Source of the DNA: Kiloniellaceae bacterium
GTDB taxonomy: Bacteria; Pseudomonadota; Alphaproteobacteria; Kiloniellales; Kiloniellaceae
DNA: 64,000 bases
Direction: 5' to 3'
Assembly: GCA_050290145.1 (NCBI GenBank)
Contig: JBNKHC010000307.1
Span: 2,772-66,771, forward strand
A model generated the notes under the pieces. It did no database searches. It was given only the letters and a program-made list of their open reading frames with translations, and was not told the origin of the DNA. Of this stretch, positions 37,708 to 53,024 are shown piece after piece (the stretch's first letter is position 1; the number at the start of each line of letters is the position of its first letter). A program made the translations under genes and the position numbers.

Positions 37708-39159
37708 ATGGAGAAACTGGCGATGCGTAGACTAGCAGAAATTGCCCGTGCGGCCATCGGCCACCGCGAGGAAGCGGGGCGCCGGCCGCTGAAGCGAGCC
37801 AAGCAACAAGGCGCGCGGCTGCTGGCCGATGCCCGTGGCAACGTAAGCGTCGTGATCGGCTTCTGCGCAATTGCGCTCGTCGGCGGCGTGGGTATCGCCA
37901 TCGATACCTCGATTGCCTACAACGTGCGCTCGCAGTTGGCTGCGGCGGTGGATGCCGCCGCCTTGGCCGGTGCGCGCGCCTTCGCCAGCCCCAACCGCGA
38001 TACAGACATCCACAACTTCTTCGACGCCAATTTCCAGGAAGGCTACATGGGCTCTGTCCTGCAGCCGCTGGAGATCGCGACGAATAACGAGGCCCGCACC
38101 GTCACGGTAACGGCGCGCGCCGCCATCCCGACGTTCTTCATGAGCGTGCTGGGCACCGACTCCACCGACATCGCCGCTTCCGCCGAGGCGACACTGTCGT
38201 CGCGCGACGTCGAAGTGGCCCTGGTGCTCGACGTCACCGGCTCCATGTCGGGGTCGCGGATCAGTGACCTTCGCGATGCCGCGAACGAGCTGGTCGACAT
38301 TGTCGTGCAGGATCTGCAGGAACCCTTCTATTCGAAGGTGGCACTGGTACCCTATTCGAATTCCGTCAACGTCGGCGGCTATGCCGATGCCGTGCGCGGC
38401 GCAGCGACTGCCGGCACCTGTACCTACCCGACCGCGCCGACCTGCGAGGATTTTGAATTCCCGCGGGCGAGCGACGGCGACATGATCACCTACAGCATTA
38501 CCAACTGCGTGAGCGAGCGCTCGGGCCCGCAGCTCTCAACCGACGCCGCGCCCACCGTGGCGCTGCTGGGCCGGCAGTATTCCCACGCCACCTACAACCC
38601 CTGTCCCGACCCGGTCATTACGCCGCTGTCGAGCAACAAGACCGCGCTGCACACCGCCATCAACGCCTTGGAGGCGTCCGGCTCGACCGCAGGGCAAATC
38701 GGTGTCGCCTGGGGCTGGTACCTAGTCTCGCCGAACTTCGGTTACCTCTGGCCGGCCGCGAGCCAGCCGAAGGACTATGGTGAAATTCACCTGGGCCAAG
38801 AGGTGCTGAAGGTCGTGGTGGTCATGACCGACGGTGACTTCAACACGATCTACGCCGACGGCGTGATCGCCAAGAACTCGACCAGCGGCAGTGGCAGCAA
38901 CAACTACAAGATCAATGAGAACGGCTCGAACGGCAGCGCCTTCGCGCAGGCTGAAGCGCTTTGCGACAACATGAAGGCGGAGGGGGTGATCGTCTACACC
39001 GTCGGCCTCGACGTCGCCAGCACGACCGGCGCCACGGATTTCGTGAACAACTGCGCCACTAACGCCGACCATGTCTATCTGCCGTCCACCGGGACCGAGC
39101 TGAAGCAGGCCTTCCGCGACATCGCGGTGCAGGTTTCGAACCTCCGTATCTCCATGTGA
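37708..39159 (+). CDS. TadG-like pilus-assembly protein with a vWA domain
   Basis: 483 aa with a Tad N-terminal hydrophobic segment (GNVSVVIGFCAIALVGGVGIAID) and a vWA MIDAS motif (LVLDVTGSMSG). Confidence 0.8.
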   Translation: MEKLAMRRLAEIARAAIGHREEAGRRPLKRAKQQGARLLADARGNVSVVIGFCAIALVGGVGIAIDTSIAYNVRSQLAAAVDAAALAGARAFASPNRDTDIHNFFDANFQEGYMGSVLQPLEIATNNEARTVTVTARAAIPTFFMSVLGTDSTDIAASAEATLSSRDVEVALVLDVTGSMSGSRISDLRDAANELVDIVVQDLQEPFYSKVALVPYSNSVNVGGYADAVRGAATAGTCTYPTAPTCEDFEFPRASDGDMITYSITNCVSERSGPQLSTDAAPTVALLGRQYSHATYNPCPDPVITPLSSNKTALHTAINALEASGSTAGQIGVAWGWYLVSPNFGYLWPAASQPKDYGEIHLGQEVLKVVVVMTDGDFNTIYADGVIAKNSTSGSGSNNYKINENGSNGSAFAQAEALCDNMKAEGVIVYTVGLDVASTTGATDFVNNCATNADHVYLPSTGTELKQAFRDIAVQVSNLRISM

Positions 39160-39235
39160 CCGCGGGTGGTTGCGGGGGACCGAATTAGCGGAAATCGGAA
39201 ATCAGATTTGCTCATATGCCACGTGGTGAGAAAAA

Positions 39236-39252
39236 ATTGCGAATGACGCAAT
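39236..39252. promoter_or_regulatory. ATTGCG-N5-CGCAAT palindrome upstream of terS
   Basis: attgcgaatgacgcaat. A T-run and ttgcac-N17-catctt (a weak sigma-70-like promoter) follow it. Same half-site as the operators next to the repressor gene. Confidence 0.4.
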
Positions 39253-39384
39253 TTTTTTGGTTGCACAATTCGCACAGTTTCGGCATCTTGTGAGCCTATC
39301 GTCCGCGAATTGGCGTTGCGGCCCTGAGGGGCCGGCCCCTGTCGGGCGGAGCTTTCCCAGACATTCCTTCGAGGGTCCGACGCG

Positions 39385-39648
39385 ATGCCGAAGCGCAGCA
39401 CCGCGGCGGCGGAGCCTGCCGCGCCCAAGCGCGCCGCGACGCCCCGCAAGGCGAAGAAGACCGACGCCACCAAGCTTTCGCCCTTGGACTACATGCTGCA
39501 GGTGCTGCGCGATCCGGAGGCCAGCCCGGCCGAGCGCAAGTGGGCGGCGGAGAAGGCGGCGCCCTACATCCATCCGCGCCTGCAGACGGTCGAGCACGGC
39601 GGCGAGGTAACCCTGCGCCACGAGGACGCGCTCGAGGCGCTAAAGTGA
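39385..39648 (+). CDS. Terminase small subunit-like protein
   Basis: 87 aa with a basic N-terminus, then PLDYMLQVLRDPEASPAERKWAAEKAAPYIHPRL, a motif I associate with small terminase subunits of alphaproteobacterial phages. Its stop overlaps the terL GTG start (GTGA). Confidence 0.6.
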   Translation: MPKRSTAAAEPAAPKRAATPRKAKKTDATKLSPLDYMLQVLRDPEASPAERKWAAEKAAPYIHPRLQTVEHGGEVTLRHEDALEALK

Positions 39649-41204
39649 GCGCCGCCAAGGCGGCGAGGGAAAGGGCGATCCGCCAGCGGCTGAAGGACGA
39701 CCTGCCGCACTATGCCGAACGCTGCCTGAAGATCCGCAGCAAGGCGGGACGCCTGGAGGCTCTGGTGCTGAACGCCGTGCAGCGGCATATCCATGGGCGC
39801 CTGGAAGGACAGCGCCGCGAGACGGGCCGGGTGCGGGCGCTGATTTTGAAGGCGCGCCAGCCGGGCGTCTCCACCTACGTCGGTGCGCGCTTCTATTGGA
39901 AGGTGACCCACGGGCGCGGCCTGCGTGCCTTCATCCTGACCCACCGCGACCAGGCCACGGCGAACCTCTTCGCCATGGCCAAACGTTTTCACGATGGCTG
40001 CCCGCCGCCGGTGAAACCTCTCACCAAGGCGAGCAACGCCAAGGAGCTGACTTTCGGCCTGCTGGACTCGGGCTACCAGGTCGGCACCGCCAAGGCGGCG
40101 GGGGTCGGGCGCTCCGACACCATCCAGTTCTTTCACGGCTCCGAGGTCGCCCACTGGGCCAATGCCGAGGAGCACGCCGCCGGCGCGCTGCAGGCGGTTC
40201 CGCGCGAGCCGGGCACTGAGATCATCCTGGAGAGTACGGCCAACGGCGTGGGTGGCCTCTTCTACAATCTCTGGCAGGCGGCGGTGCGCGGGGAAGGGGA
40301 CTATCAGGCGATCTTCATTCCCTGGTTCCTGCATGCCGACTACGCCAGCGCGCCGCCAAAGGGCTGGCGCCCGCCGAGCACCTTCGAGGAATACGCCACG
40401 CTGCACGGCCTCTCACCCGTGCAGCTCCACTGGGCCTGGGCCAAGAATGCCGAGCTGGCGGCGGCCAGCGGCGAGGCCTCCGACAGTTTCACCTGGCGCT
40501 TCCGCCAGGAATACCCCGCAACCGCACAGGAGGCCTTCCAAGTGAGCGGCCAGACGTCCCTGATCCGTCCCGAGCTGGTGGTGCGCGCGCAAGGCCGCAA
40601 GGCGGAGGACCAGTCCCACGCACCGCTCGTCCTGGGCGTCGACGTGGCGCGCGGCGGCGGCGACCGCTCGCACCTGATCGACCGGCAAGGCCGCGCCGCC
40701 GGACGCCAGGTCAACCGTTCCATCGACTGCGCCGACACCATGGAGCTGGCCGGCCTCATCGCGCGGGAGATCGAGCGCCTGCAGCCGGACATGACCTTCA
40801 TCGACATGGGCTCCTTCGGCGCCGCGGTCTACGACCGCCTGCTGGAACTGGGCTACCGGAAATGCATCAGCGGCGTGAACTTCGGCGGCCGCGCCCAGGA
40901 CGCGCGGCAGTACGCCAACAAGCGCGCGGAAATCTGGGGCAGCCTGCGCGACTGGCTGGCCGATCCCGGCGGGGCGGAACTGCCCGACGACCCGCTGCTG
41001 CACAGCCACCTCTGCGCGCCGGGCTTCCAGATCAACAGCAACCAGCAGATCGTGCTGGAGGCCAAGGACCGCATCAAGGCGCGCCTCGGCCTCTCGCCCG
41101 ATGCCGGTGACGCTCTGGCGCTGACCTTCGCCGAGCCGCTGCGCCGCGAGCGCCGCGCCGCGGCGGAACGCAGCTTGACGGCCTACGCCATCCACGACTG
41201 GTAA
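39645..41204 (+). CDS. Terminase large subunit
   Basis: Start trimmed to GTG 39645. Walker-A-like ILKARQPGVSTYV, and an ATPase plus nuclease layout typical of P22/Sf6-type TerL. Confidence 0.85.
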   Translation: MSAAKAARERAIRQRLKDDLPHYAERCLKIRSKAGRLEALVLNAVQRHIHGRLEGQRRETGRVRALILKARQPGVSTYVGARFYWKVTHGRGLRAFILTHRDQATANLFAMAKRFHDGCPPPVKPLTKASNAKELTFGLLDSGYQVGTAKAAGVGRSDTIQFFHGSEVAHWANAEEHAAGALQAVPREPGTEIILESTANGVGGLFYNLWQAAVRGEGDYQAIFIPWFLHADYASAPPKGWRPPSTFEEYATLHGLSPVQLHWAWAKNAELAAASGEASDSFTWRFRQEYPATAQEAFQVSGQTSLIRPELVVRAQGRKAEDQSHAPLVLGVDVARGGGDRSHLIDRQGRAAGRQVNRSIDCADTMELAGLIAREIERLQPDMTFIDMGSFGAAVYDRLLELGYRKCISGVNFGGRAQDARQYANKRAEIWGSLRDWLADPGGAELPDDPLLHSHLCAPGFQINSNQQIVLEAKDRIKARLGLSPDAGDALALTFAEPLRRERRAAAERSLTAYAIHDW

Positions 41205-41292
41205 CACCCCTTCCGGAACCGCCTTGCCGCGGCGGCAACGGCCCGGCGCATCCCCTAGGTTCGGTCCCGCCCTCCCTGCCGAACCGCGCCGG

Positions 41293-41310
41293 GCCACCCC
41301 GCCGGGTGGC
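41293..41310 (+). terminator. Hairpin after terL
   Basis: gccaccc-cgcc-gggtggc followed by the pyrimidine/T-rich tract tctctgatccttcttcc. Confidence 0.35.
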
Positions 41311-41350
41311 TCTCTGATCCTTCTTCCTCCCGCCTTCAGCGGAGTTTCCC

Positions 41351-42784
41351 ATGACCGACGAGGCCTGTGTTGAGGCTGCCGGCGAAGACGCCGGCGGCCC
41401 GCCTGCGCCTGCGCGCACAGAACCTGCCTTCACCATCCGCAGCGTGCCGCCGCCGACGGCGGAAGAACGACGGGCGCGCCGCGAGGCGATGGAACGCGCT
41501 TTCCGCTTCGGCGCGGCGCCCTACCGCGACGCAGAGGGTAAGGCGCGCTACGTCTTCTTCCGGGAGGCCAACAACGCTCCGGTCGAGGCCTGGACCCGCG
41601 ACCGCGAGGCCAAGCGCGGCTACCGCCGCACCCAGTACGCCCGCAAGGCCGCAGGCCAGATGGCCTGGCATCCCGAAGACCAGATCGAACTCGGGAAAAG
41701 GCTGGGCGTGATCTACCACCGCGAGGGCCGCGGCCCCGAGGGTGCAGCAGAGCGCGGGCTCTATGACGCCATCTGGCGCTACGAGCACGTCTGGGACAGC
41801 TTCACGGTCCCCAGGCGTTACGGCCGCGACATCATCGAGACCGGGCGCATCGCCGCGGTGGCGGAGGAGGAGGCCCGCAGGCTGCAGGCCGAAGATCCCA
41901 GGGCCCAGGGCGGCTTCTGGGTGCGCGACCGCAAGAACCTTGGCCTCATCTACGTCGTCCCCAATCCGGATCCGGCGGCGGCTGGCAGCGAGGAAGTCAT
42001 GGATGGGGGAGGCGATGACGTTCTCATCGGGCAGGCCAACGCACTATCATCGCCACCGCCGCTGCCGAGGCGGAAGCCTATCGCGCCAGGGCGGCCGTCG
42101 CCGTCCCCTTCAGGTGGCATGCCTCCTGCTGCGTCCTCCGGTGGACCAGCGCCAATGCCGGCAACAGCCGACGATTACTTTGCGATCCTCCACAACAATC
42201 TCGCCCCAAGAGAGGGTGGCCGCGCGAACCGTCCGGCTCATGTGGATCCAGGTGGCAAGACGAATAAGGGAATTACGCAGAAAACACTGGATCGCCTGCA
42301 GCGGAACAAGCCGGCCGAATACGGTCACTACCCGACCGATCCCTTCGCGCTGACCGATGACCAGATCGAAACCATCCTCCGCAAGGAGTACTTCGATCCT
42401 CTCCACATGTGGAAGATTGCGCAGATCCCCGATCTTCTCACGCTCGCGCCTCAACTGCCCGATCAGATCTTCGACATCGCGGTGCTGCACGGCGTCGGCT
42501 ACGCCGGACGCATCGTTCAGGAGGCTCTATTTGACGTGATGGGCATTGACCTGAGGACTATCAAGAATGGCTTGCTCGACTACGACGGGATTATCGGGCC
42601 CGCCACACGCAATGCGATTGCGCAGGCAGTGGCTACCGGAAAAGTCGTGGAACTCAATGATCGTATTGTTGACAAACGTCGGGCGGAATTGAGCAGCAAG
42701 GGGCATAAAGTGGACAACCGCGGTTGGTTTCCCAGAGTGGAATCCTTCCGAATCTTGCCGGTGACGTCACCGAATGCACCCTAG
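41351..42784 (+). CDS. Polymorphic phage protein C1: conserved N-domain + RTX-like nonapeptide + Pro-rich linker + GH108 muramidase/PG-binding domain
   Basis: 477 aa. Residues 1-208 are shared with C2 and C4. The C-terminus carries the GH108 signature LAPREGGRANRPAHVDPGGKTNKGIT, followed by a PG_binding_3-like region (DYDGIIGPATRNAI). The 3' half is AT-richer. Confidence 0.8.
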   Translation: MTDEACVEAAGEDAGGPPAPARTEPAFTIRSVPPPTAEERRARREAMERAFRFGAAPYRDAEGKARYVFFREANNAPVEAWTRDREAKRGYRRTQYARKAAGQMAWHPEDQIELGKRLGVIYHREGRGPEGAAERGLYDAIWRYEHVWDSFTVPRRYGRDIIETGRIAAVAEEEARRLQAEDPRAQGGFWVRDRKNLGLIYVVPNPDPAAAGSEEVMDGGGDDVLIGQANALSSPPPLPRRKPIAPGRPSPSPSGGMPPAASSGGPAPMPATADDYFAILHNNLAPREGGRANRPAHVDPGGKTNKGITQKTLDRLQRNKPAEYGHYPTDPFALTDDQIETILRKEYFDPLHMWKIAQIPDLLTLAPQLPDQIFDIAVLHGVGYAGRIVQEALFDVMGIDLRTIKNGLLDYDGIIGPATRNAIAQAVATGKVVELNDRIVDKRRAELSSKGHKVDNRGWFPRVESFRILPVTSPNAP

Positions 42785-42949
42785 AGGGAATCAGAGCTCA
42801 AGCTTATTGCACTACTTGCTGGCTATCAGTTGCAGGGCCCCTGTCAAGCTGGCGACGGCCCTTACAGATGTACGCTGATGCCAAAACCATAAGCGGACGA
42901 AATCCGTGAGCCAAATCGTTCAGAACCCAAGCTTCGCTTCCATAAAGCA

Positions 42950-43402
42950 TCAGTAGCGATCCTTTGTCTCTGCTTCGATATCTTTTAAGATCCTCGCTAG
43001 GAGGTCTATGTAGCTCTCAATGTATCGCATCGAAGGCAGCAGGCCACAGGAGCTAGGGCAATAGCGGTTTTCGGCATAGATCCGGTAATACAGTTCATCA
43101 TGAACCTTTCGGAGAGCATGAAGATGTTCTTCAGCACGATCTGTGAACTCCGGGAGGAGCCAGCCGCGGATTTTGGCTAGCACGGCCTTTTCCATGCATA
43201 TGGCCGTGAGGTCCAGTCCATCTCCGTAGGCCGCGGCGGAGCCCGTGCCACGCAATTCTTCTGACCTTTGCCAGCAGTCTTCGATGATCGGATCTGCATC
43301 GAAGGGCTCGAAGGGCAAGGAAACGATGTCACCACCAGCCAAGACGGGTGTGACAGTTAGCAGGTAGGCAAGAGCCGGTACGAAGAGCTTTATGGCTTTC
43401 AT
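42950..43402 (-). CDS. Secreted 4-Cys helical protein, candidate immunity/inhibitor for the C1 muramidase
   Basis: Start trimmed to ATG 43402 after a ggggaggaa RBS. Signal peptide MKAIKLFVPALAYLLTVTPVLAGG. AT-rich and convergent with C1. Loose resemblance to DUF1311/LprI lysozyme inhibitors. Confidence 0.55.
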   Translation of the reverse strand: MKAIKLFVPALAYLLTVTPVLAGGDIVSLPFEPFDADPIIEDCWQRSEELRGTGSAAAYGDGLDLTAICMEKAVLAKIRGWLLPEFTDRAEEHLHALRKVHDELYYRIYAENRYCPSSCGLLPSMRYIESYIDLLARILKDIEAETKDRY

Positions 43403-43522
43403 GATTTCCTCCCCTGAAGCGATCAACCGCAGCGTGCACCGCAATTACGGCGATCTTTGGGCATTGGCGCGCTCGTTCGTCACAAACTGATCCTTCTTCT
43501 TCCCGCCTGAGGCGACTTTTTC

Positions 43523-45058
43523 ATGACCGACGATGCCTTCCCGGAGGCGGCCGGCGCAGATGCCGGCGGCCCGCTTGCGCCTGCGCGCGCAGTACCGGAA
43601 TTCACGATCCGCAAGGTGCCGCCGCCGACGGCGGTGGAGCGCCAGGCGCGCCGCGAGGCGATGGAGCGGGCGATCCGCTTCGGCGCGGTGCCCTACCGCG
43701 ACGCAGAGGGTAAGGCGCGCTATGTCTTCTTCCGGGAGGCCAACAACGCGCCGGTCGAGGCCTGGCGGCGCGACCGTGAGGCCAAGCGCGGCTATCGCCG
43801 TACCCAATATGCCCGGAAGGCGGCGGGGCAGATGGCCTGGCACCCGGAGGACCAGATCGAACTCGCGAAACGACTGGGCGTGATCTACCACCGCGAGGGA
43901 CGCAGCGCCGAGGGTGCCGCCGAGCGTGGCCTCTACGACGCCATCTGGCGCTACGAACACGTCTACGACAGCTTCACCGTCCCCAGGCGTTACGGGCGCG
44001 ACATCATCGAGACCGGGCGCATCGCCGCGGTGGCCGAGGAGGAGGCGCGCAAGCTGCAGGCCGAAGACCCTAAGGCCACTGACGGGTTCTGGGTGCGCGA
44101 CCGCAAGAACAACGGCCTCATCTATGTCGTCCCCAATTCAGACCCGGAGGCAGGCGCCGATGCCGGGTCCGCCGAGCGAGCGGCAACGCCCGAGGATGAG
44201 ATCCTCGAGGGCGGAGGCGGCGAAGGCGTCCTGCCGGGCCAGGACGATGCCGCGTCCGAGCCGGCGCAAAATCCTTCAAAGGAGCAAGAAGAATCCGCTG
44301 TCGAGCAGACGCTGCACTATCCTGACATCTCCTTGCCACCGCCGAACAAGACGTGGAAGACAGGAAAAGAGCCCCCACCGGATCGAGAGCAATTGCCGGT
44401 CATTAACATGGAAAAGGATAGAATTGAAAATATCCTCAGCAATGACCCTGCCATTTTCGAGATCACCGACTGGAGCAAAGCGATCCCGAGCGCTCCGATC
44501 TACGAACTCGGACCATATGGTGCCTGGGCTGTTTGGTTATACCAAGATCTGATTGAGTTTGAGGCAGAACGTCAAGGTGTCGATCCGAACTTGATCAAGG
44601 CCACAATCTATTTCGAGAATGCGAGAGGAGGCTCCTATGGACATCTCTCTGAAGCTCTCGACCGGTCTGACTCGATCCTGCCGATGAACATCAAGCAGGA
44701 AACCTGGGGAGGCCTTCTCGGGCCTGATGCGGACTTCTCGGATCCGCTATTGAATATCAGGGCAGGCACGATGCTTTTGCGCCGCATACAAGAGCGAGTT
44801 GCTGCGCCTACTGTGGCCAAAGTGTCTTCCATATATCACATCGCTGGCAGAGAAAAAGTTCACGACAACGGTGCTCGAGTAAGTCAATTCTATGCACAGA
44901 GGCCGTGGGAAAACCTGCTACGTGCGTTGGACGAGCCCAACCTGAAGATTCCGCGCCAAGCCAGGTCTTTCTGGGAGAAGTTGCGGCAGCGTCGCGAAGA
45001 GCTGCGTAGGCGGTTGCTCGTGGAAAAGATGAAAATCGCAAGATCAGGAGACCGGTGA
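43523..45058 (+). CDS. Polymorphic phage protein C2: conserved N-domain + RTX-like nonapeptide + SLT-type lytic transglycosylase domain
   Basis: 511 aa. Residues 1-208 are shared with C1 and C4. The C-terminus has an SLT/goose-lysozyme pattern (IYFENARGGSYG...ILPMNIKQETW...NIRAGTMLLRR). The 3' half is AT-richer. Confidence 0.8.
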   Translation: MTDDAFPEAAGADAGGPLAPARAVPEFTIRKVPPPTAVERQARREAMERAIRFGAVPYRDAEGKARYVFFREANNAPVEAWRRDREAKRGYRRTQYARKAAGQMAWHPEDQIELAKRLGVIYHREGRSAEGAAERGLYDAIWRYEHVYDSFTVPRRYGRDIIETGRIAAVAEEEARKLQAEDPKATDGFWVRDRKNNGLIYVVPNSDPEAGADAGSAERAATPEDEILEGGGGEGVLPGQDDAASEPAQNPSKEQEESAVEQTLHYPDISLPPPNKTWKTGKEPPPDREQLPVINMEKDRIENILSNDPAIFEITDWSKAIPSAPIYELGPYGAWAVWLYQDLIEFEAERQGVDPNLIKATIYFENARGGSYGHLSEALDRSDSILPMNIKQETWGGLLGPDADFSDPLLNIRAGTMLLRRIQERVAAPTVAKVSSIYHIAGREKVHDNGARVSQFYAQRPWENLLRALDEPNLKIPRQARSFWEKLRQRREELRRRLLVEKMKIARSGDR

Positions 45059-45133
45059 GCCATCCGGCAGCTCTAAAGCAAATTCTTGCCATTATCTGCC
45101 GTCATTTTTCCATGCGCGTGGCGCATTGTTGCC

Positions 45134-45616
45134 ATGGCAGCCGGAAAGATTGACGGACTTGATCGGCAGCTGCGGGGCCAGGCGGTAGGTGATATGGCTA
45201 TTTTCTTGATGATGTTCCTCTATGTTGCCTGGTACGTCGCATGGGGAGGAACCTTCATGGCCTCATGCACCATGGGAGATGCCAAGTCGCTCGGTGGTGC
45301 CATGATCTTATCCTTTCTGATTTTCTTGGCTCCAATCACAACTTTGCCAAAGCATGGTCTGAGTATGTTCGGGCTGCTGCTGGCGGTTCCACTTATTTTT
45401 CTGCTCTTGCGGCAGGGAGTGTGGGCCGTTGAGTTGTTTGTCGTTGTGAGCATCGAGGGTCGCAGTGCCTGCAGCCTGATGATGGGGGATGATTATGGCG
45501 TAGCAAAGGGCGGATGGCTCGAGCATTCCTATGCCTTCTACTACTTCATTACCAGTGTGGCCTCTCTTTGGGCGATCGCATCTTCCCACCGACGATATCG
45601 CCGGGAGGCGACGTGA
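45134..45616 (+). CDS. Small polytopic membrane protein, candidate immunity partner of C2
   Basis: ORF 45086..45616. The start is uncertain (ATG 45134 or 45194). It has 4-5 hydrophobic helices, is AT-rich, and lies directly downstream of C2. Confidence 0.5.
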   Translation: MAAGKIDGLDRQLRGQAVGDMAIFLMMFLYVAWYVAWGGTFMASCTMGDAKSLGGAMILSFLIFLAPITTLPKHGLSMFGLLLAVPLIFLLLRQGVWAVELFVVVSIEGRSACSLMMGDDYGVAKGGWLEHSYAFYYFITSVASLWAIASSHRRYRREAT

Positions 45617-45713
45617 TGACTTTGCCTCATATCGGATGACTTGACAGGCACCAGAGTTCTGCACGCTCTGGAAACGTCTTAGCGGCCTTCCTCCCGCCTG
45701 AGCGGAGTTTTCC

Positions 45714-45959
45714 ATGACCGACGATGCCTCCCCAAAAGCTGCGGGGGAAGCTGCCGGCGAGGCTGCCGTCGGCCCGCTTGCGCCTGCGCGAACAGAACCT
45801 GTCTTCACCATCCGCAGCGTGCCGCCGCCGACGGCGGAAGAACGACGGGCGCGCCGCGCCGGCTTCAAGACCGATCCGACCGGCATCAACTTCGATCTCA
45901 GCGAACTACCGGCCCGCTGTTCTTCAAGTCGAACTAGGAGAGGGGTGTGCCCCGGTTAA
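45714..45959 (+). pseudogene. C3: internally deleted, frameshifted remnant of a C4-like gene
   Basis: The first ~47 aa match the family N-terminus. It then jumps to ..TGINFDLSELP.., matching the last ~20 aa of C4 (DINFDLSQLTGPLFFKAN) with a 1-nt indel. The same leader sequence as C1 and C2 lies upstream. Confidence 0.65.
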
Positions 45960-46040
45960 CCCAGGGAGGTTAGTACTCCGTTGGGCCTACGCACGATGGG
46001 CCTACGTTTAGTCGTCCCACCTTGGGAGCGAGGCACCTGG
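45884..46040 (+). repeat. Direct repeat copy A (~160 bp): 3' end of the C-gene plus a conserved downstream non-coding segment
   Basis: Aligns by eye with 50581..50743 with few mismatches. Contains a ggggtgtgcccc hairpin and the internal direct repeat tgggcctacg-cacga-tgggcctacg. Confidence 0.85.
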
Positions 46041-46135
46041 ACACCATAGGCGCCGCCGGCGGGCCGGTTCAGCCGACGCTTGCGGCCTTTGATGAGTCCC
46101 GGCAACGCCGACGCCTTCTCAGCCGAGTAGCTTCG

Positions 46136-46693
46136 ATGACCGACCACGAATTCTGCGCTGGCGCGCCGTTGCGCGCGCTTGCCGTATTCCATGACCAGGG
46201 GGCCGGCTTCTGGCCGCGCTTCTTCGGGCGACTAGGCTTTCGCCACTGCTTCGTCGCGGTAAACGACGGCCGTGCGTGGATCGTGATCGACCCCTGCAGC
46301 GACGGCACGTGGATCAGCGCGGACGTCGCCGGGGCGGTGGATCTGGCCGCACACTATCGTGGGCTCGGCTGCAGTGTCGTCGAGACAGCCGTCGCGCAAG
46401 GCGGCCGCCGCTACGGTCTGCCCTGGGCCTTCACCTGCGTCGAGGCGGTCAAACGCATCCTCCATGTCCACGGCTGGTGGCTCTGGACGCCCTATCAACT
46501 CTATCGATGCCTGGAGAAAGAAAACCATGGGAAGCATCTTCAGCCCGCCCAAGCCGAAAGCCCCGCCGCCGCCACCACCCCCGCCGGATCCAGCGACGGA
46601 CCCCGCCATCGAGGAAGCACGCAAGCGCGAGCGGGAGGCGGCGAAGCGCCGGCGCGGCCGCCAGGCGACGATCCTGACCAGCGGCCTGGGTGA
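46136..46693 (+). CDS. Hypothetical phage protein (possible permuted papain-like fold)
   Basis: Start chosen at ATG 46136 (MTDHEF). His...Asp...Cys order (FRHCFVAV..VIDP..FTCVEAVKRIL). Its Pro/Ala/Gly-rich tail overlaps the next gene in another frame. Confidence 0.45.
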   Translation: MTDHEFCAGAPLRALAVFHDQGAGFWPRFFGRLGFRHCFVAVNDGRAWIVIDPCSDGTWISADVAGAVDLAAHYRGLGCSVVETAVAQGGRRYGLPWAFTCVEAVKRILHVHGWWLWTPYQLYRCLEKENHGKHLQPAQAESPAAATTPAGSSDGPRHRGSTQARAGGGEAPARPPGDDPDQRPG

Positions 46694-46736
46694 CACCGGC
46701 GATCCCAGGGTGCAGCAGCCGACGCTACTCGGGTGA
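46527..46736 (+). CDS. Small Pro-rich/basic phage protein (69 aa)
   Basis: ATG 46527 after a ggagaaagaaaacc RBS. MGSIFSPPKPKAPPPPPPPP...RRRGRQATILTSGLG resembles a small protein commonly encoded just before podovirus portal genes (from memory). Confidence 0.55.
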   Translation: MGSIFSPPKPKAPPPPPPPPDPATDPAIEEARKREREAAKRRRGRQATILTSGLGDTGDPRVQQPTLLG

Positions 46737-46769
46737 GCCTTCATCGTTCCATCAAGACAGGATCCCTTC

Positions 46770-48410
46770 ATGCCTCGCGAAATTGATGATCTGCTGGCGC
46801 GCCACAAGCGCCTGAAGGACCAGCGCCGCGTCTGGGAAAGCCACTGGCAGGAGTTGGCGGAGGTGATGCTGCCGCGCCGTGCCGACTTCACAACGCAAAA
46901 GACGGACGGCGAACGGCGGACCCAGCACCTTTTCGACGGCACACCGATGCTGGCGCGGCGCGGCCTGGCGGCGGCCATCGACGGCCTGCTGAAGCCCAAG
47001 ACCGCCCGTTGGTTCCGGGTAAAGACGATGGACGATGCCCTGGGCGAGGACGAGGGCGTGAAGCGCTGGCTGGAGATCGCCGAGGAGCGGCTCTACCGCG
47101 CCATCTACAGCCGCCGCGCCCGCTTCATCCAGCGCTCCGGCGAGGTGGACGAGGACCTGGTGACCTTCGGCAGCGGCGTGCTGTTCATCGGCGAGGGGCG
47201 CGAGCTGAACCGCCTGTTGTTTCGCTCCTACCACCTGAAGGACGTGGTGCTGAGCGAAAACGCCGACGGCGAGATTGACAGCCTGTTCATCACCCTGCGC
47301 CTGACGGCGCGGCACGCGGCGCAGCGTTTCGGCGAGGCGGCGCTGGGGAAGGACACCCGCGAGGCGCTGAAGGCGGGGGAGGCGGACAAGGAGTTCACCT
47401 TCCTGCAGGCGGTCATGCCGCGCGAAGAGCGCGACCGAAGGCGCCGTGACAACAAGAACCTGCCCTATGCTTCGCTCATCGTCGACGTGCAGTCCGAGCA
47501 CCTGGTGAGCGAAAGCGGCTACCACGAGTTTCCCTTCGCGGTGCCGCGCTGGGACACGAGCTCGGGCGAGGTCTACGGCCGCTCCCCCGGCATGATCGCC
47601 CTGCCGGACGCCAACACCCTGCAGCAGATGGGCAAGACCCTGCTGGTCGCCGGGCACAAGGCGGTCGACCCGCCTCTGCTGGTGGGCGACGATTCCGTGC
47701 TGGGCACGCCGAAGACCTTCCCCGGCGGCATCACCACCTTCGACATGCAGGCGGCGCGCGACCTGGGCCGCATTCCCATCGAGCCGCTGCAGACCGGTTT
47801 CAACCTGCCGCTGGGTCGCGAGATGCAGAAGGACGCCCGCGACCAGATCTGGGCCGCCTTCTTCCGCAACGTGCTGCAGCTGCCCGTCGACGCGCCGCGC
47901 ATGACGGCGACGGAGGTCCTGGAGCGCAAGGAGGAGTTCATCCGCACCATCGGACCGGTCTTCGGGCGGCTGGAGAGCGACTACATCGGCCAGGTGGTGG
48001 AGCGCAGCTTCAACATCCTGCTGCGCGCCGGCGCCTTTCCGCAGCCGCCGGAGATCCTGCAGGGCCAGGAGGTGGTCTTCGACTACGCCAGCCCGGTGGA
48101 GCAGGCGCGCCGCCAGATCGAGGCGGCGGGCGCGGCGCGCTCGGTGGAGCTGCTGGCGCCCTTCGTGCAGGCCGACCCGAGCATCCTCGACAACTTCGAC
48201 GGCGACGCCATCGCCCGCGATACGCCGGAAATCTTCGGCATGCCGCAGCGCTGGTTGCGTCCCAAGGAGGAGGTCGACGGCCGCCGCGAAGGCCGCCAGC
48301 AGGCCGACCAGGCAGACGCCCTGCTGCAAGGGGCGGCGGAGGCCGCCGGCGGCGGCGCAGGGGGAGGCGGCGTGCTGCAACAGCTTCTGCAAGGGGGCGC
48401 ACCGCAGTGA
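46770..48410 (+). CDS. Portal (head-to-tail connector) protein, T7 gp8/BPP-1-type
   Basis: 546 aa. Position and sequence (LLARHKRLKDQRRVWESHWQELAEVMLPRR...) fit the podoviral head-tail connector family. Confidence 0.85.
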   Translation: MPREIDDLLARHKRLKDQRRVWESHWQELAEVMLPRRADFTTQKTDGERRTQHLFDGTPMLARRGLAAAIDGLLKPKTARWFRVKTMDDALGEDEGVKRWLEIAEERLYRAIYSRRARFIQRSGEVDEDLVTFGSGVLFIGEGRELNRLLFRSYHLKDVVLSENADGEIDSLFITLRLTARHAAQRFGEAALGKDTREALKAGEADKEFTFLQAVMPREERDRRRRDNKNLPYASLIVDVQSEHLVSESGYHEFPFAVPRWDTSSGEVYGRSPGMIALPDANTLQQMGKTLLVAGHKAVDPPLLVGDDSVLGTPKTFPGGITTFDMQAARDLGRIPIEPLQTGFNLPLGREMQKDARDQIWAAFFRNVLQLPVDAPRMTATEVLERKEEFIRTIGPVFGRLESDYIGQVVERSFNILLRAGAFPQPPEILQGQEVVFDYASPVEQARRQIEAAGAARSVELLAPFVQADPSILDNFDGDAIARDTPEIFGMPQRWLRPKEEVDGRREGRQQADQADALLQGAAEAAGGGAGGGGVLQQLLQGGAPQ

Positions 48411-48742
48411 CCCCGATGCTGCGTCTGTTCCGCAAGGGACCGCCCGGCCGGCCGGACCCCGACGCCTTCTTCGCGGCGCTGCGCCGGGCCTCGCTGGGCG
48501 AGCGCTACACCGCCATCGACCGCTACCGCGACTTCCGCGCCGTGTTCTTCGGGGAGTCGACGCCGCAGCAGGGCAAGCGGGTGCTGTGGCAGATCCTGGA
48601 ATGGTGCCGCCTTTTCCGTCCGGTGAGCGCGCCGGGCGACCCGCACGAGACCTACCGCCGTGACGGCGAGCGCAACATCGGCCTCAAGATCTTCATGACC
48701 CTGAACGCCGAACCGGACGAGCCGATTCCGCCCCAGGAGTAA
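48407..48742 (+). CDS. Small conserved post-portal protein (Bbp19-like, from memory)
   Basis: 111 aa overlapping the portal stop. Has the ...RRDGERNIGLKIFMTL.. motif. Confidence 0.4.
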   Translation: MTPMLRLFRKGPPGRPDPDAFFAALRRASLGERYTAIDRYRDFRAVFFGESTPQQGKRVLWQILEWCRLFRPVSAPGDPHETYRRDGERNIGLKIFMTLNAEPDEPIPPQE

Positions 48743-48745
48743 GCC

Positions 48746-50635
48746 ATGACCGACGATGCCTCCCCGGAGGCTGCCGGCGAGACCGCCGGCGGCCCGCTTC
48801 CTGCTGCGCGCGATATGCGCTTCGTCATCCGCAAGGTACCGCCGCCGACGGCGGCGGAACGCCAGGCGCGGCGCGACGCCATGGAACGGGCGATCCGGTT
48901 CGGCGCGGCGCCCTACCGCGACGGCGATGGCAAGTCGCGCTACGTCTTCTTCCGGGAAGCCAACAACGCGCCGGTCGAGGCCTGGCGGCGCGACCGAGAG
49001 GCCAAGCGCCGCTATCGCCGCACGCAGCAGGCGCGTAAGGCCGCGGGTCAGATGGCCTGGCATCCTGAGGACCAGATCGAGCTCGCCAAACGCCTGGGGG
49101 CGATCTACCACCGCGAGGGCCGCAGTGTTGAGGGGGCTGCCGAACGCGGGCTCTACGACGCCATCTGGCGCTACGAGCACGTCTTCGACAGCTTCACGGT
49201 GCCCAGGCGCTACGGCCGCGACATCATCGACACCGGACGCATCGCCGCGGTGGCCGAGGAAGAGGGGCGCAGGTTGCAGGCCGAAGACCCCAGGGCCAAG
49301 GGTGGCTTCTGGGTGCGGGACCGCAAGAACAACGGCCTCATCTATGTGGTGCCCAATCCCGATCCCGAGATGGCGGCAGGGGATGGATTCTTTGCGGGCG
49401 AGGGCGCGGACAGCCTGGCCGGTGATGCCGGCATCGACAGCGCCCTGGAGCAGTTCTATCCCGCCGACGATTTTGATATCCCGACCGAGAGCTATGACCC
49501 CTCCGGGTTCTACCAGCTCGAAGAGGCGGAAGACGGCAGCGGCGTTTTGGTCCTGACCCCCAAAGGCTTCGGCGAGGGCGGTATGCAAGCCGCCGCCGAA
49601 AGACGCCGCGCGGGCCGCTACGAGATCGCTCAGACGACCCTGGACGACGTCTTCGACGGCATCGTCGCGGTGCTGGACAGCGGGCGCGACGCGGACGATC
49701 CGGCCTGGCAACAGCTTGCCCGCATCGCGGCGGAAGTGGCCCCCGGCACCGGCAACGTACTCAGCTCGCGCGAGGCCTACATCGCCTTCAAGGCCGCCGC
49801 GACGGCGATGGAGAAGGGCGACTGGGGCGAGGCGCTGCTGAACGGCGGCGAGGCGCTGTTCAACGCCGCCGGCGCGGTGCCGGCCTTCGGCGAGCTGCTG
49901 CGTCTCGGCAAGGGGGCGGTGAAGGTCGCCAACCTGCTATATCAGGTGGGCCGAACTACCGGCGCCCGTCCGGTGGTGGCCGCCATGGCCAGAAGCGCCG
50001 AAGAACTGGCGCCGCTGGTCAAGCGGTCAAAGCAGAGCCGGGGGCCCTTCAAGGCACTGGAGAAGACGCCGGGCGGCAACGAGGCCGCGCGCCTGGTGGA
50101 CCTGCGCCAGAAGGTGCGGCGCCGCCACTCCGGCGGCTTCTTCGAGCAGTCAGCCGAGCGCGCCTTCGAGGCGACGCGCTTTCCACCGCGCAACGCCATT
50201 GCCATAGAGCGGCGCGGGCTGGCGGCGACGGACATGGCGGTGACAGAGGCACTGTACGGCGGGAAGAGCGTGGTGCGTGACGCCATGTATCGTCATGGGG
50301 CCGGTCCCATCACTTTCTACTTCGGCGAGGCCGGCAACGCGGCGAAGAAGTACAGGGGCGGCAGCGGCTTGGCCCACATCATCGCCAAGCACGGCCCCGA
50401 GGTGATGCCCGAGGTCATCGAGACGATTTCGAAGGGGAGGCATACATTTGTAGGGAGTGGCGTCAATCAACGAATGATCATTCAACACAATGATCAGATC
50501 GTGATCCTCTCCCACTTCAATTTTGGCAGCGGCAAGCACGAGTCTTGGCTACTGACCGGATACCAAAAGGGCGATACCGACATCAACTTCGATCTCAGCC
50601 AGCTCACGGGGCCGCTGTTCTTCAAAGCGAACTAG
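48746..50635 (+). CDS. Polymorphic phage protein C4: conserved N-domain + RTX-like repeat + PT-TG-like helical region + C-terminal nuclease-like module
   Basis: 629 aa. Residues 1-207 are shared with C1 and C2. Residues ~325-400 (VAPGTGNVLSSREAYIAF...GEALLNGGEALFNAAGAVPAFG) resemble a pre-toxin TG domain. Residues ~455-629 carry GSGLAHIIAKHGPE...SWLLTGYQ, reminiscent of Barnase/EndoU/ColE5-like modules of phage polyvalent proteins. Confidence 0.75.
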   Translation: MTDDASPEAAGETAGGPLPAARDMRFVIRKVPPPTAAERQARRDAMERAIRFGAAPYRDGDGKSRYVFFREANNAPVEAWRRDREAKRRYRRTQQARKAAGQMAWHPEDQIELAKRLGAIYHREGRSVEGAAERGLYDAIWRYEHVFDSFTVPRRYGRDIIDTGRIAAVAEEEGRRLQAEDPRAKGGFWVRDRKNNGLIYVVPNPDPEMAAGDGFFAGEGADSLAGDAGIDSALEQFYPADDFDIPTESYDPSGFYQLEEAEDGSGVLVLTPKGFGEGGMQAAAERRRAGRYEIAQTTLDDVFDGIVAVLDSGRDADDPAWQQLARIAAEVAPGTGNVLSSREAYIAFKAAATAMEKGDWGEALLNGGEALFNAAGAVPAFGELLRLGKGAVKVANLLYQVGRTTGARPVVAAMARSAEELAPLVKRSKQSRGPFKALEKTPGGNEAARLVDLRQKVRRRHSGGFFEQSAERAFEATRFPPRNAIAIERRGLAATDMAVTEALYGGKSVVRDAMYRHGAGPITFYFGEAGNAAKKYRGGSGLAHIIAKHGPEVMPEVIETISKGRHTFVGSGVNQRMIIQHNDQIVILSHFNFGSGKHESWLLTGYQKGDTDINFDLSQLTGPLFFKAN

Positions 50636-50743
50636 AGGGGAAGGGGTGTGCCCCGGTGAACCCAGGGAGGCTTTTGACTCCGTTGGGCCTACGCACGATG
50701 GGCCTACGTCTTAGCTGTCCCACCGTGGGAGCGAGGCACTTGG
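50581..50743 (+). repeat. Direct repeat copy B (~160 bp), partner of 45884..46040
   Basis: Covers the last 18 codons of C4 plus ~105 nt downstream. Same hairpin and tgggcctacg duplication as copy A. Confidence 0.85.
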
Positions 50744-50783
50744 TGAAGATAGAGAGCGCCGCCGCAACCTTCAACACTACCGC

Positions 50784-51281
50784 TCAGCGGTAGACATAGC
50801 GCAGCTGGCGCTCGCCGCGCAGGGGGCAGGGCGGCCCCAGACCGTCGAAGCGGAAGCCGAGGCGCTCCAGCCACTCCCTGCTGGGGGCATGGTCGGGGTG
50901 GGCTTCCACCACAATGCTGTGCAGACCGTAGTGGCGTATGAGCCGCGGCAAGGCGCGGGCGAAAGCGCGGAACAGGCTCTGCCGGGTGCGGCGGCAGAGC
51001 GGCGCCGAAAGGAAGGCCCAGGCCTTGGCCTGCAGGCCCTCGATCACCAGACCGACGCAGGCCACGACCTCGCCGCTCCACAGGAGGGTGAGGGCAGGCC
51101 CGTTACGATAGTAGGCCATCGCGAAGCGCTGCAGGGAGCGGCGCAGCATCGGCGCGGGCTCCAACTCGGCAAGGTGGGTGTTGCTGAAGGGAACGAGGCC
51201 GAGCGCCGCACCCGCCGCCGCCGCGGATTGGGCCGCCTTGCGCCTCTGGCCCGTGGGAACCTGGCTTTCCGTCGTCTGCAT
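50784..51281 (-). CDS. GNAT-like small protein, paralog 1 (convergent with C4)
   Basis: 165 aa. Collinear with 58748..59179 (VPF..HLA.L.P...A.AY..GPA.TL....C.GL.IEG....AWAFLS...EAH....R.WL.RLGF). Confidence 0.55.
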   Translation of the reverse strand: MQTTESQVPTGQRRKAAQSAAAAGAALGLVPFSNTHLAELEPAPMLRRSLQRFAMAYYRNGPALTLLWSGEVVACVGLVIEGLQAKAWAFLSAPLCRRTRQSLFRAFARALPRLIRHYGLHSIVVEAHPDHAPSREWLERLGFRFDGLGPPCPLRGERQLRYVYR

Positions 51282-52367: not shown

Positions 52368-52673
52368 CTAATTGCCTTTCAGTCTGGTCGATGGCGTGGC
52401 CCCGGACCTCGAGTCCGCCTTTTTGCAGTGCACCACGTTGTCCTTCATGGAGCACTCGGCCTTGATCAGACCGGGGCCGCAGTTCAGCCCTTGCGGTCCG
52501 GAATTGCAGTTGGTGCAGCCGCCGGCGGGACACCACTTGCAGCAGGCGGGAAACTCGGTCTGCCCGGGCGGCGGCGCCTTTAACATCACGGGGCCTTCTT
52601 GGGCCTGAGCGACATTGGTCAGGAACATGAGCGCGCCGATGAGAGCGGCGCAGAGTCCGATTCTGATAGGCAT
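52368..52673 (-). CDS. Secreted 8-Cys mini-protein, paralog 1
   Basis: 101 aa with signal peptide ...LTNVAQAQ. Core FPACCKWCPAGGCTNCN...LNCGPGLIKAECSMKDNVVHC. ATG with an aagga RBS. Confidence 0.65.
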   Translation of the reverse strand: MPIRIGLCAALIGALMFLTNVAQAQEGPVMLKAPPPGQTEFPACCKWCPAGGCTNCNSGPQGLNCGPGLIKAECSMKDNVVHCKKADSRSGATPSTRLKGN

Positions 52674-52706: not shown

Positions 52707-53024
52707 TCAGCCGTCGTCGCGGATGCAGGTCGCCTTGTTGTCGACGACCTGGCACTTTGCCTTGATCAGGCCGGAGCCGCAGTTGAGCTGTGGCGTGTTC
52801 GGATAGGCGTTGCAACCGGTGCAGCCGCCTGCCGGACAGGCCGAGCAGCAGGCCTCGAAGCGCTGCTTGCCTGGTGGGACCGACTTCAGCGACGAAGGGC
52901 CGGTCGCCGTCGGGCGCGGCGGTTCGGCCGGCGAGGTGTTGCTCTTGAGCTGCGCCTGGGCGGCGCCGCCAATGGCCATGGCAGTGCAGAGAAAAGCAAT
53001 GGAAATTAGATGCTTGAGGCTCAT
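52707..53024 (-). CDS. Secreted 8-Cys mini-protein, paralog 2
   Basis: 105 aa with signal peptide ...IGGAAQAQ. Core FEACCSACPAGGCTGCN...LNCGSGLIKAKCQVVDNKATC. Strong gggagga RBS. Confidence 0.65.
   Translation of the reverse strand: MSLKHLISIAFLCTAMAIGGAAQAQLKSNTSPAEPPRPTATGPSSLKSVPPGKQRFEACCSACPAGGCTGCNAYPNTPQLNCGSGLIKAKCQVVDNKATCIRDDG

Follow-up and report, generated by a model that had tools for sequence, protein, structure and literature searches.

Why do several genes within a single podovirus-type head operon begin with nearly the same 205 amino acids (aa) and continue into unrelated C-terminal domains? The question is raised by a stretch of 64,000 nucleotides (nt) from Kiloniellaceae bacterium (GCA_050290145.1, contig JBNKHC010000307.1, 2,772-66,771, forward strand; hereinafter referred to as the window), in which three complete genes (C1, C2, and C4), a truncated copy (C3), and a degenerate stub carry the same N-terminal block (the N-domain) and lie among head and packaging genes (Table 1). 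The regions behind the N-domain (the cargo) differ from copy to copy, and for most cargo types a small partner gene is present as well. The genes very probably represent a lineage-restricted polymorphic effector/immunity family with a new constant domain. The explanation we consider best for the locus as a whole, namely such a family whose N-domain would load the cargo into phage-like particles, is given a probability of roughly 0.45.

The N-domain and its cargo

The shared block ends in ...LIYVVPN(P/S)DP, its last residue being 205, 205, and 204 in C1, C2, and C4, respectively (nt 41965, 44137, and 49357). Over 215 aa, C2 and C4 were 86% and 83% identical to C1, and over the core (aa 27-205) the copies were 88-92% identical, with 83-88% for the ~205-aa block as a whole; in a preliminary description of this DNA, about 90% had been estimated by eye. 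The list of open reading frames (ORFs), the alignment, and the identity values agree with that description in placing the block on C1, C2, C4, and the truncated C3. At the nucleotide level, the window copies were 85-89% identical. Synonymous divergence (dS) between the paralogues was 0.42-0.51 and the ratio of non-synonymous to synonymous divergence (dN/dS) was 0.14-0.21, so each copy is maintained by protein-level selection; the copies are old and not recent duplicates. Multi-copy N-domain arrays were found again in independent assemblies. An assembly duplication artefact, which had been named as a danger, was ruled out by this recurrence, by the dS values, and by the differing cargo.

A leader with a GGAG ribosome-binding site precedes C1, C2, and C3, and its sharing by these copies, noticed previously, was confirmed at the nucleotide level. 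C4 is without this leader because its start lies only 4 nt past the stop of the Bbp19-like gene. A hairpin sequestering the ribosome-binding site in the shared leaders was unsupported (folding z -0.65 to +0.25). The GC content was ~0.50-0.56 at 42200-43500, 44300-45650, and 50300-50750, versus ~0.70 in the N-block and the backbone genes, which matches the AT-richer 3' halves and following genes noticed previously.

C3 consists of ~48 N-domain codons joined to the final codons of a PBECR1-type gene. Its end and ~120 nt downstream (45879-46061) match the 3' end and flank of C4 (50576-50764), with 33 nt identical, and its location is that of an intact N::PBECR1 gene in a related locus, L007 (terL / N::PBECR1 / orf46022 / portal). 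By these matches, C3 is an internally deleted PBECR1-type copy. The ORF of the fifth fragment, starting at 53244, encodes MEKAAARVAESQHAGGPLAPASDMPSFALRELPQPT; tblastn aligned 53268-53351 with the N-domain at 50-61% identity over 23-28 aa (E 1e-4 to 1e-3), and the fragment, already listed in the preliminary description, is genuine though weak. Its site, between the genes for the scaffold and the major capsid protein (MCP), is occupied by complete cassettes in L001 and L006.

The N-domain had not been recognised as a named family, and the searches gave the same answer. No match was found in Pfam even at E<=10, in PHROGs, in NCBIfam, in PDB sequences by profile search, in IMG/VR, or by tblastn at E<=1 among 50,697 GenBank phage genomes. 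Relatives were rare: an exhaustive HMMER search of 1.84 billion proteins yielded 34 representatives, all from Pelagibius/Kiloniellaceae, and a word-indexed search of 5.8 billion proteins yielded 11. A scan of 185,579 species, one genome each, identified three N-domain loci, all in metagenome-assembled genomes of Pelagibius/Kiloniellaceae, and a metagenome scan identified five, all marine. A first AlphaFold model, built from a 6-sequence alignment, had a predicted local distance difference test (pLDDT) score of 42.6 and was not used. The model built from 20 sequences was mainly helical with two small sheets (pLDDT 64.9, predicted template modelling score [pTM] 0.59); the ~25 N-terminal residues are rich in Gly, Ala, and Pro and predicted to be disordered. 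Foldseek with this model found no match in the PDB (best E 0.63, TM 0.16) or in BFVD (best E 0.27), where MuF-like entries appeared as noise only (E 1.9-2.9, TM about 0.2). The N-domain would accordingly count, as far as sequence and fold searches reach, as a previously undescribed and very rare family limited to one small group of marine alphaproteobacteria.

Behind the N-block, a short acidic linker leads to a single RTX-like glycine motif with the consensus h-x-G-x-G-x-D/E-x-h-x-G-Q/D. The motif is retained in every relative and in all cargo classes, and it marks the constant/variable boundary, the recombination junction. Neither a signal peptide nor a transmembrane (TM) segment was predicted for C1, C2, or C4, and one effector domain was recognised per N-domain protein.

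For C1, the GH108 muramidase announced in the preliminary description was identified by Pfam, and the peptidoglycan-binding domain named with it remained below threshold. The match of C1 to NCBIfam NF040573 ('holin-associated N-acetylmuramidase') was at the domain level only, with 44 bits versus a cut-off of 240. C2 had been taken for an SLT lytic transglycosylase. The window copy itself had no SLT match and no family match in Pfam, PHROGs, or NCBIfam, and its cargo had no PDB sequence match; sub-threshold SLT matches (PF01464, E 0.017-0.05, below the gathering score) were obtained for three of the seven C2-type members, which lends the assignment weak support. In the alignment of C2 with its six orthologues, an invariant Glu in MYFEN(A/T)RG is followed by LPMNI, and the cargo is probably a divergent lysozyme/SLT-like domain. 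In C4, the predicted nuclease-like module is a PBECR1 RNase-like domain, whereas the PT-TG-like segment predicted beside it found no match at E<=10 in residues 216-629.

The suggestion that the cargo is exchangeable was strengthened when relatives were searched for other C-termini on the same N-domain. Across ten loci (the window and nine related ones, given here by L numbers) and the 34 database representatives, the architectures were N::GH108, N::SLT-like, N::mid-A::PBECR1 (as in C4), N::mid-B::PBECR1, N::mid-C::NTase-like, N::mid-A::NTase-like, and N::unknown (485 aa). At least two further cargo types are present in the relatives, one nucleotidyltransferase-like (NTase-like) and the other unknown, and so are three middle regions in shuffled combinations. 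The NTase-like label is based on the motif GS...ASDFD(I/L)A(I/L)VS alone, and this cargo had no Pfam, NCBIfam, or PDB match. The N-domains were 88-98% identical within a genome, versus 63-72% between distant genomes with the same cargo type, and for this reason the N-domain and the cargo have separate histories. Such discordance is the signature of cassette exchange or of concerted evolution.

Partner genes, cassette slots, and the host cluster

The preliminary description had allowed for immunity partners. Both cargo-specific partner genes and orphan modules of cargo plus partner were found, as in polymorphic toxin loci, and partner ORFs of 140-220 aa stand behind three of the four identified cargo types. 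The GH108 cargo was accompanied by a signal-peptide protein with four Cys at 7/7 loci (the window, L002, L003, L005, L007, L010, and L013); its gene was present in two copies in L005 and in L010, and as an orphan in L006. This protein is a candidate periplasmic muramidase inhibitor or immunity protein. An assignment to LprI-type inhibitors (PF07007), carried as a UniRef label by one homologue, was not reproduced, since LprI models had 0 matches at E<=1 among 17 members of the partner family, and no PDB match was found.

The SLT-like cargo was followed by a 4-TM or multi-TM protein in 6/6 cases. Homologues of the window's C2-type partner were present in L002, L010, and L011, an unrelated 4-TM family in L005 and L006, and extra orphan copies of the 4-TM gene in L002 and L010. 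The product is a candidate membrane immunity protein, with a holin as the rival reading. The NTase-like cargo was followed by acidic, predicted cytosolic proteins of ~140-160 aa (L001/L005, L010) and the unknown cargo type by a 221-aa ORF. The orphan modules comprised an NTase-like C-terminal fragment with a second acidic partner (L010), a PBECR1 module (L001), and an SLT-like fragment with additional 4-TM genes (L002). The predicted location of each partner fits the compartment of its effector, i.e., periplasmic for GH108, inner membrane for SLT-like, and cytosolic for NTase-like, and we read the partner genes as immunity genes.

Two paralogous (52-56% identical) small secreted Cys-rich proteins are encoded at 52368-52673 (-) and 52707-53024 (-), adjoining the N-domain stub between scaffold and MCP. 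The pair was not found in any related locus; its products may have belonged, as partners now orphaned, to a cargo since lost, or may be peptides for secretion.

The backbone genes occur in the order terS, terL, orf46022, portal, Bbp19-like, a reverse-strand paralogue of internal protein A, scaffold, MCP, two small genes, tail tubular A and B, and internal proteins A, B, and C; a tail fibre gene begins at 63165 and extends past the window end. All backbone genes inside the window are intact. Complete copies of terL in related loci were 82-87% identical to that of the window, and a C-terminal fragment in L006 was 94% identical. In every locus, orf46022, portal, and Bbp19 follow one another in this order, and they do so in Pelagibacter phage HTVC010P as well. 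The closest cultured phages are Pelagibacter podoviruses of this type (portal ~40%, MCP ~41%), and HTVC010P has the same backbone order with no such cassettes.

The cassettes were inside the head/packaging module, as had been described, in the orientation of the head operon, and in the ten loci they occupied three intergenic slots: after terL (slot 1), after Bbp19 (slot 2), and between scaffold and MCP (slot 3). In the window, three cassettes are stacked in slot 1 (C1 with partner, C2 with partner, and the C3 remnant), C4 is in slot 2, and the stub is in slot 3. One relative (L005 plus L001) had at least five N-domain genes. The C4-type gene was translationally coupled, at 4 nt, to portal-Bbp19 in five genomes (the window, L002, L005, L007, and L010).

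Other accessory genes were observed in the same slots: a tail-fibre/collar-like 268-aa protein after terL in L010 (12664-13470, -) and a SOUL-domain protein between scaffold and MCP in L012 (2364-3014, +). The slots therefore take more than N-domain cassettes. The reverse-strand gene at 50784-51281 (-), a type present upstream of scaffold in every locus, is a paralogue (46-48% identity in relatives) of internal protein A at 58748-59179 (+); both match phrog_4177 and phrog_308, and the former has a weak GNAT-like Pfam match. An alternative-frame ORF at 46359-46736 (+) overlaps orf46022 and ends in ...PPPPPPPPDPATDPAIEEARKREREAAKRRRGRQATILTSGLGD...; a 69-aa equivalent at the same site in L010 reads MGSIFKPSKPKAPPPPPP...RRGRAATILTSGLGD. 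The ORF probably represents a genuine small gene of the backbone, immediately 5' of portal.

A further polymorphic protein is encoded in the cluster. In internal virion protein C (852 aa), a conserved N-terminal part gives way to a C-terminus that is variable and low in GC, and a gene for a secreted Sel1-repeat protein follows on the opposite strand; L011 and L012 have Sel1 genes in the equivalent place. Two orphan modules lie behind the main gene and its Sel1-like neighbour in Pelagibius sp. CAU 1746 (L011, 10001-18343); they reuse residues 417-555 as a handle and have different C-termini, each with its own Sel1-like gene. On this pattern, the 852-aa protein is a second polymorphic system in the same cluster. 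Its T7-type homology was assigned via the PHROG annotation of neighbouring genes. Internal proteins of the T7 type are ejected on infection. By analogy, the 852-aa protein should leave the capsid on infection, which would make virion ejection a plausible delivery route for variable toxins. No SLT domain was found in the internal virion proteins, in line with the earlier remark that this set is without a gp16-type SLT domain.

The word 'phage-borne', used in the preliminary description, became doubtful, and a phage-like cluster fixed in the chromosome would be the better term for the setting. A common left flank was shared by six genomes (the window, L002, L003, L007, L010, and L013); it begins either with tad pilus genes, among which Pfam identified TadE in L010 and L013, or with the 483-aa neighbour at 37708-39159, and a conserved operator-like region and then terS come next. 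The MCP was 95-98% identical across genomes, versus 68-71% for the flanking host protein. In a complete 5.16-Mb genome, the cluster measures ~38 kb, runs from terS to the tail fibre with a few small ORFs, and is flanked by host genes (M23 peptidase and bactofilin); all but a 3.3-kb stretch of it was examined and gave no Pfam match to integrase or replication proteins. The structural cluster was absent from the viral databases searched. Its structural-only gene content, its recurrence at one chromosomal position in six genomes, and its absence from these databases make the cluster look like a domesticated or defective element and not like a mobile phage, and it is possibly a podovirus-type element resembling a gene transfer agent (GTA). 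The same-site recurrence may also be compatible with repeated site-specific integration.

Three non-coding elements were identified. The region at 39215-39290 contains the palindrome ATTGCG-N5-CGCAAT between A- and T-runs, followed by TTGCACA..CGCACAGTTT.GGCATC. It aligned in five genomes, largely invariant, and is probably the left edge and control region of the cluster. Immediately past the terL stop lies a long hairpin (41222-41310; minimum free energy -56 kcal/mol, z -3.6, with 0/200 shuffles as stable), whose nucleotide identity was 92-96% in L002, L006, and L007 and 88% in L008; at the protein level, the same genomes reached just 65-85%. It has no T-run and no Rfam match, and may be a regulatory element, a packaging-related one, or a recombination site.

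The third element, ~110 nt, always followed the PBECR1 3' ends; seven copies were found in four genomes (the window, L001, L005, and L007), in tandem in L005 and L007, and within the window 50677-50709 is identical to 45975-46007 over 33 nt. RNAalifold gave four compensatory pairs, all contributed by one divergent copy, the single-sequence fold was no more stable than shuffles (z +0.6), and no Rfam match or conserved ORF was found. A structured RNA or RNA antitoxin was not retained as an assignment, given the weak covariation and the lack of thermodynamic and Rfam support. The element might act as a 3' arm of homology when cassettes are exchanged, or as an RNA antidote.

Table 1. Coordinates of the genes, domains, and non-coding elements in the window
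Feature	Position	Strand	Remarks
Operator/promoter-like region	39215-39290	.	Upstream of terS, left cluster edge
terS	39385-39648	+	PHROG terminase small subunit
terL	39540-41204	+	PHROG terminase large subunit
Long hairpin, ~90 nt	41222-41310	+	GC-rich; immediately past terL stop, before first cassette
C1	41351-42784	+	477 aa; N-domain 41351-41965
C1 junction motif	42005-42034	+	GGGDDVLIGQ
C1 GH108 muramidase domain	42203-42493	+	Pfam E 3.6e-13; Pro/Ser-rich linker precedes
C1 PG_binding_3	42509-42685	+	Below threshold, E 0.0078
GH108 partner (candidate immunity gene)	42950-43402	-	150 aa; Sec-type signal peptide; four invariant Cys; low GC
C2	43523-45058	+	511 aa; N-domain 43523-44137
C2 junction motif	44213-44242	+	GGGEGVLPGQ
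C2 lysozyme/SLT-like domain, divergent (probable)	around 44519-44767	+	Invariant E in MYFENARG, then LPMNI
C2-type partner (candidate immunity gene)	45194-45616	+	140 aa; about four TM segments; low GC
C3 remnant	45714-45959	+	81 aa; N-domain portion 45714-45857; PBECR1-type tail 45879-45937
PBECR1 3' element, second copy	45939-46050	+	Follows the PBECR1-type tail of C3
orf46022	46136-46693	+	Backbone gene
portal	46770-48410	+	Pfam Head-tail_con E 2.9e-128
Bbp19-like	48407-48742	+	Pfam Phage_Bbp19 E 2e-14
C4	48746-50635	+	629 aa; N-domain 48746-49357
C4 middle region 'mid-A'	49388-50065	+	
C4 junction motif	49397-49426	+	GEGADSLAGD
C4 PBECR1 RNase-like domain	50282-50572	+	Pfam E 1.4e-8
PBECR1 3' element, ~110 nt non-coding	50640-50745	+	Follows C4
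Fifth, degenerate N-domain stub	53244-53351	+	Slot 3, scaffold/MCP; tblastn
Internal virion protein C	59660-62218	+	852 aa; ~675 aa N-terminal conserved; C-terminus variable, low-GC
Secreted Sel1-repeat protein	62255-62908	-	Pfam Sel1 E 7.2e-8; hydrophobic N-terminus; low-GC

Proposed effector delivery and competing explanations

As far as the sequences can be read, the locus has the features named in the general definition of polymorphic toxin systems by Zhang et al. 2012 (PMC3482391): a constant N-terminal region, variable C-termini, adjacent partners, and orphan cassettes. How the effectors would leave the cell is a separate matter, and delivery by packaging into virions and ejection from them is put forward tentatively, at slightly less than even odds. 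Being inserted in slots of the head operon, the cassettes would be made alongside procapsid components. The N-domain would dock its cargo to a component inside the head (portal, Bbp19, scaffold, or internal core) and in this way lead to packaging. On adsorption, the cargo would be ejected together with the internal proteins and act in the target cell, the wall hydrolases in the periplasm and the RNase and NTase-like domains in the cytoplasm. Cells with the same cluster would be protected by the partner genes, some of which run opposite to the late operon, so that their expression might not require induction. An arrival of the muramidase from outside would make most sense, because C1 is signal-less and its partner is exported and encoded opposite to the late operon.

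Several points weigh against packaging of an effector/immunity family. Sequence and fold searches detected no similarity of the N-domain to MuF, scaffold, portal-binding, or internal proteins, and the best structure model of it is just moderate, as its scores given above indicate. The PBECR1 cargo, alone among the cargo types, is without a protein partner gene, both for C4 in the window and in relatives, and none of the partners could be assigned to an immunity or inhibitor family already known. GH108 with PG_binding_3 is also a typical endolysin architecture, to which the domain-level NF040573 match belongs. Further, terL is split or truncated, or N::GH108 is split, in L010, Pelagibius sp. 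CAU 1746, and L003, and one relative is without a portal gene, which could mean decay rather than a working machine, or assembly error. Finally, we infer the presence of these proteins in particles, and particle production itself, from gene context alone.

The same arrangement could belong to colicin- or pesticin-like bacteriocins, in which the N-domain would serve receptor binding and translocation instead of packaging. Lysis of the producer by the phage-like cluster would release the proteins, which would then enter neighbouring cells unaided, and the partners would confer immunity. A constant N-terminus, a killing domain, and an immunity gene follow the logic of colicins and S-pyocins. Among bacteriocins, pesticin has muramidase activity and its immunity protein is periplasmic, while colicins E5 and D share with PBECR1 the RNase function and the BECR fold. 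The disordered, Gly/Ala/Pro-rich start of the N-domain suits this explanation, and the partners and orphan modules fit it equally well. Yet the N-domain is unrelated to those of such bacteriocins, and 205 residues are small for receptor binding plus translocation. Moreover, a released protein would have no need of genes embedded in the head operon and coupled to portal-Bbp19 in five genomes, and the internal-protein homologue in the same cluster, likewise polymorphic, points to ejection. We consider bacteriocins unlikely on these grounds.

Packaging might also serve the phage itself. The cargo would then aid infection, i.e., help DNA entry or host takeover, with the RNase and NTase-like domains directed against host defence and the partners acting in superinfection exclusion. 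Lysozyme, transglycosylase, and PBECR1 domains recur in polyvalent proteins predicted to be injected from virions (PMC5512222), PBECR1 cargo here is without an immunity partner as in those proteins, and the wall hydrolases would replace the gp16-type SLT domain that the internal proteins do not have. The absence of an integrase or replication module from the one complete genome and the fixed position beside tad genes suggest, however, that there is perhaps no infection cycle to be aided. Up to five cargo genes per cluster, orphan modules, and cytosolic antidotes to the NTase-like cargo speak of toxin/immunity turnover instead, and we regard infection aids as a rather poor fit.

Should the genes form a lysis module, C1 and C2 would be endolysins, the 4-TM gene a holin, the N-domain a regulatory or anchoring extension, and C4 an unrelated nuclease sharing that extension. 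The common occurrence of GH108 with PG_binding_3 in endolysins, the domain-level match of C1 to a holin-associated enzyme, the small multi-TM gene directly behind C2, and the absence of other recognised lysis genes from the window agree with such a module. It is made improbable by the bit score of C1, far under the NCBIfam cut-off, and by the neighbour of the GH108 gene, which in 7/7 loci is a signal-peptide protein and not a holin. Two or three copies of the 4-TM gene, paralogous or orphan, are present per locus, and two unrelated families serve the same cargo type, which is unusual for holins, and the RNase and NTase-like cargo on the same N-domain, the latter with cytosolic partners, would be left unexplained.

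Non-functional debris, that is, duplicated and recombining leftovers of a decaying prophage, of which the C3 and 53244 remnants, the split genes of relatives, and the missing portal would be signs, is very hard to reconcile with the dN/dS of the paralogues at their dS, intact reading frames of 477-629 aa, an MCP far more conserved than the flanking host protein, and window backbone genes that are all intact.

Relation to known systems and biological meaning

MuF toxins are the precedent for polymorphic toxins carried by phage heads, with 614 muf genes in 611 phages (PMC5576092), and PBECR domains usually occur as fusions with MuF or portal domains, in proteins predicted to be packaged in virions and injected (PMC5512222). 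MuF toxins and the MuF- or portal-PBECR fusions appear to be the closest parallels to the proteins described here, and the N-domain appears not to be a member of the MuF family. Shared with the MuF toxins of temperate phages (Jamet et al. 2017, PMC5576092; PMC3482391) are a constant N-domain encoded in the head/packaging module by portal, variable C-terminal toxins including nucleases, small downstream immunity ORFs, and the proposed packaging and injection. The differences are considerable. The N-domain is not MuF by sequence or fold search (Pfam, where MuF is PF04233 or PF06152, PHROG, and Foldseek), and three to five or more copies are found per cluster instead of one muf per phage. Bbp19 stands between portal and the C4-type gene, and the other copies follow terL or scaffold; the cargo includes peptidoglycan hydrolases with exported or membrane partners. 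In addition, MuF toxins belong to siphoviruses of Firmicutes, whereas the present genes belong to a T7/HTVC010P-like podovirus-type cluster of marine alphaproteobacteria that is apparently fixed in the chromosome.

Polyvalent proteins (Iyer et al. 2017, PMC5512222) likewise combine PBECR1 RNase-like with lysozyme or transglycosylase domains, are encoded among virion genes, and are predicted to be packaged and injected, as proposed here. They have 2-15 domains and no partner genes, whereas the proteins of the window have a single effector behind a dedicated constant N-domain, and most cargo types have partners. RcGTA (PMC5721377) appears to resemble the host cluster in being a structural-only, phage-derived cluster at a conserved chromosomal site with a strongly conserved capsid protein; it is siphovirus-like, whereas the cluster considered here has a podovirus (T7/HTVC010P-like) backbone and polymorphic effector cassettes. 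Rhs, CdiA, and type VI effector-immunity loci, among which are peptidoglycan hydrolase effectors with immunity in the periplasm and arrays of orphan C-termini and immunity genes, have in common with it the constant region, junction motif, and variable toxin, the compartment-matched immunity, and orphan modules that keep a handle of the constant region, as do the L011 internal protein and the NTase-like and PBECR1 modules. Secretion-system genes are absent here, unlike in those loci, and a phage-like particle is the only plausible vehicle nearby.

Two further comparisons concern phage proteins that travel in virions. In T4, internal proteins and Alt have an N-terminal targeting sequence of about 10 residues, which is cleaved and directs passengers into the head. 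The T4 sequence is also an N-terminal element with diverse passengers, and the element here is a 205-aa domain. T7 gp16 and other virion-associated peptidoglycan hydrolases are ejected and help to cross the murein. An ejected wall hydrolase is the likeness; in gp16, the SLT domain lies within the core protein itself. We know of no T4 internal protein, Alt, or gp16-type hydrolase with a cognate immunity gene. To our knowledge, phage-head-borne polymorphic toxins are known only through MuF, mostly from siphoviruses of Firmicutes, and their delivery is unproven.

What the window would add is a second, unrelated constant domain in a MuF-like role, in a T7/HTVC010P-like head and in several copies per cluster; it seems to be a novel means of equipping phage-like particles with exchangeable toxins. 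The pairing of GH108 with an exported partner is best understood if sibling cells receive the enzyme in their periplasm. New candidate families arise from the locus, namely a muramidase inhibitor, membrane immunity proteins, and an NTase-like toxin, and cultured carriers (Pelagibius litoralis, type strain GCA_011683915.1, and Pelagibius sp. CAU 1746) make capsid-based toxin delivery directly testable.

The conserved, structural-only podovirus-like cluster may be a new kind of domesticated phage element. A bolder extension, doubtful in our own estimate, is that a domesticated podovirus-type particle, encoded by the ~38-kb cluster, serves Pelagibius/Kiloniellaceae as a protein-injecting weapon or kin-discrimination device, its capsids loaded via the N-domain and the internal protein with interchangeable toxins against cell walls and nucleic acids. 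If this were true, only neighbours with matching periplasmic, membrane, or cytosolic immunity genes would survive the injected toxins. Tailocins and contractile injection systems would then have a counterpart based on capsids, and no domesticated element derived from a podovirus would precede it.

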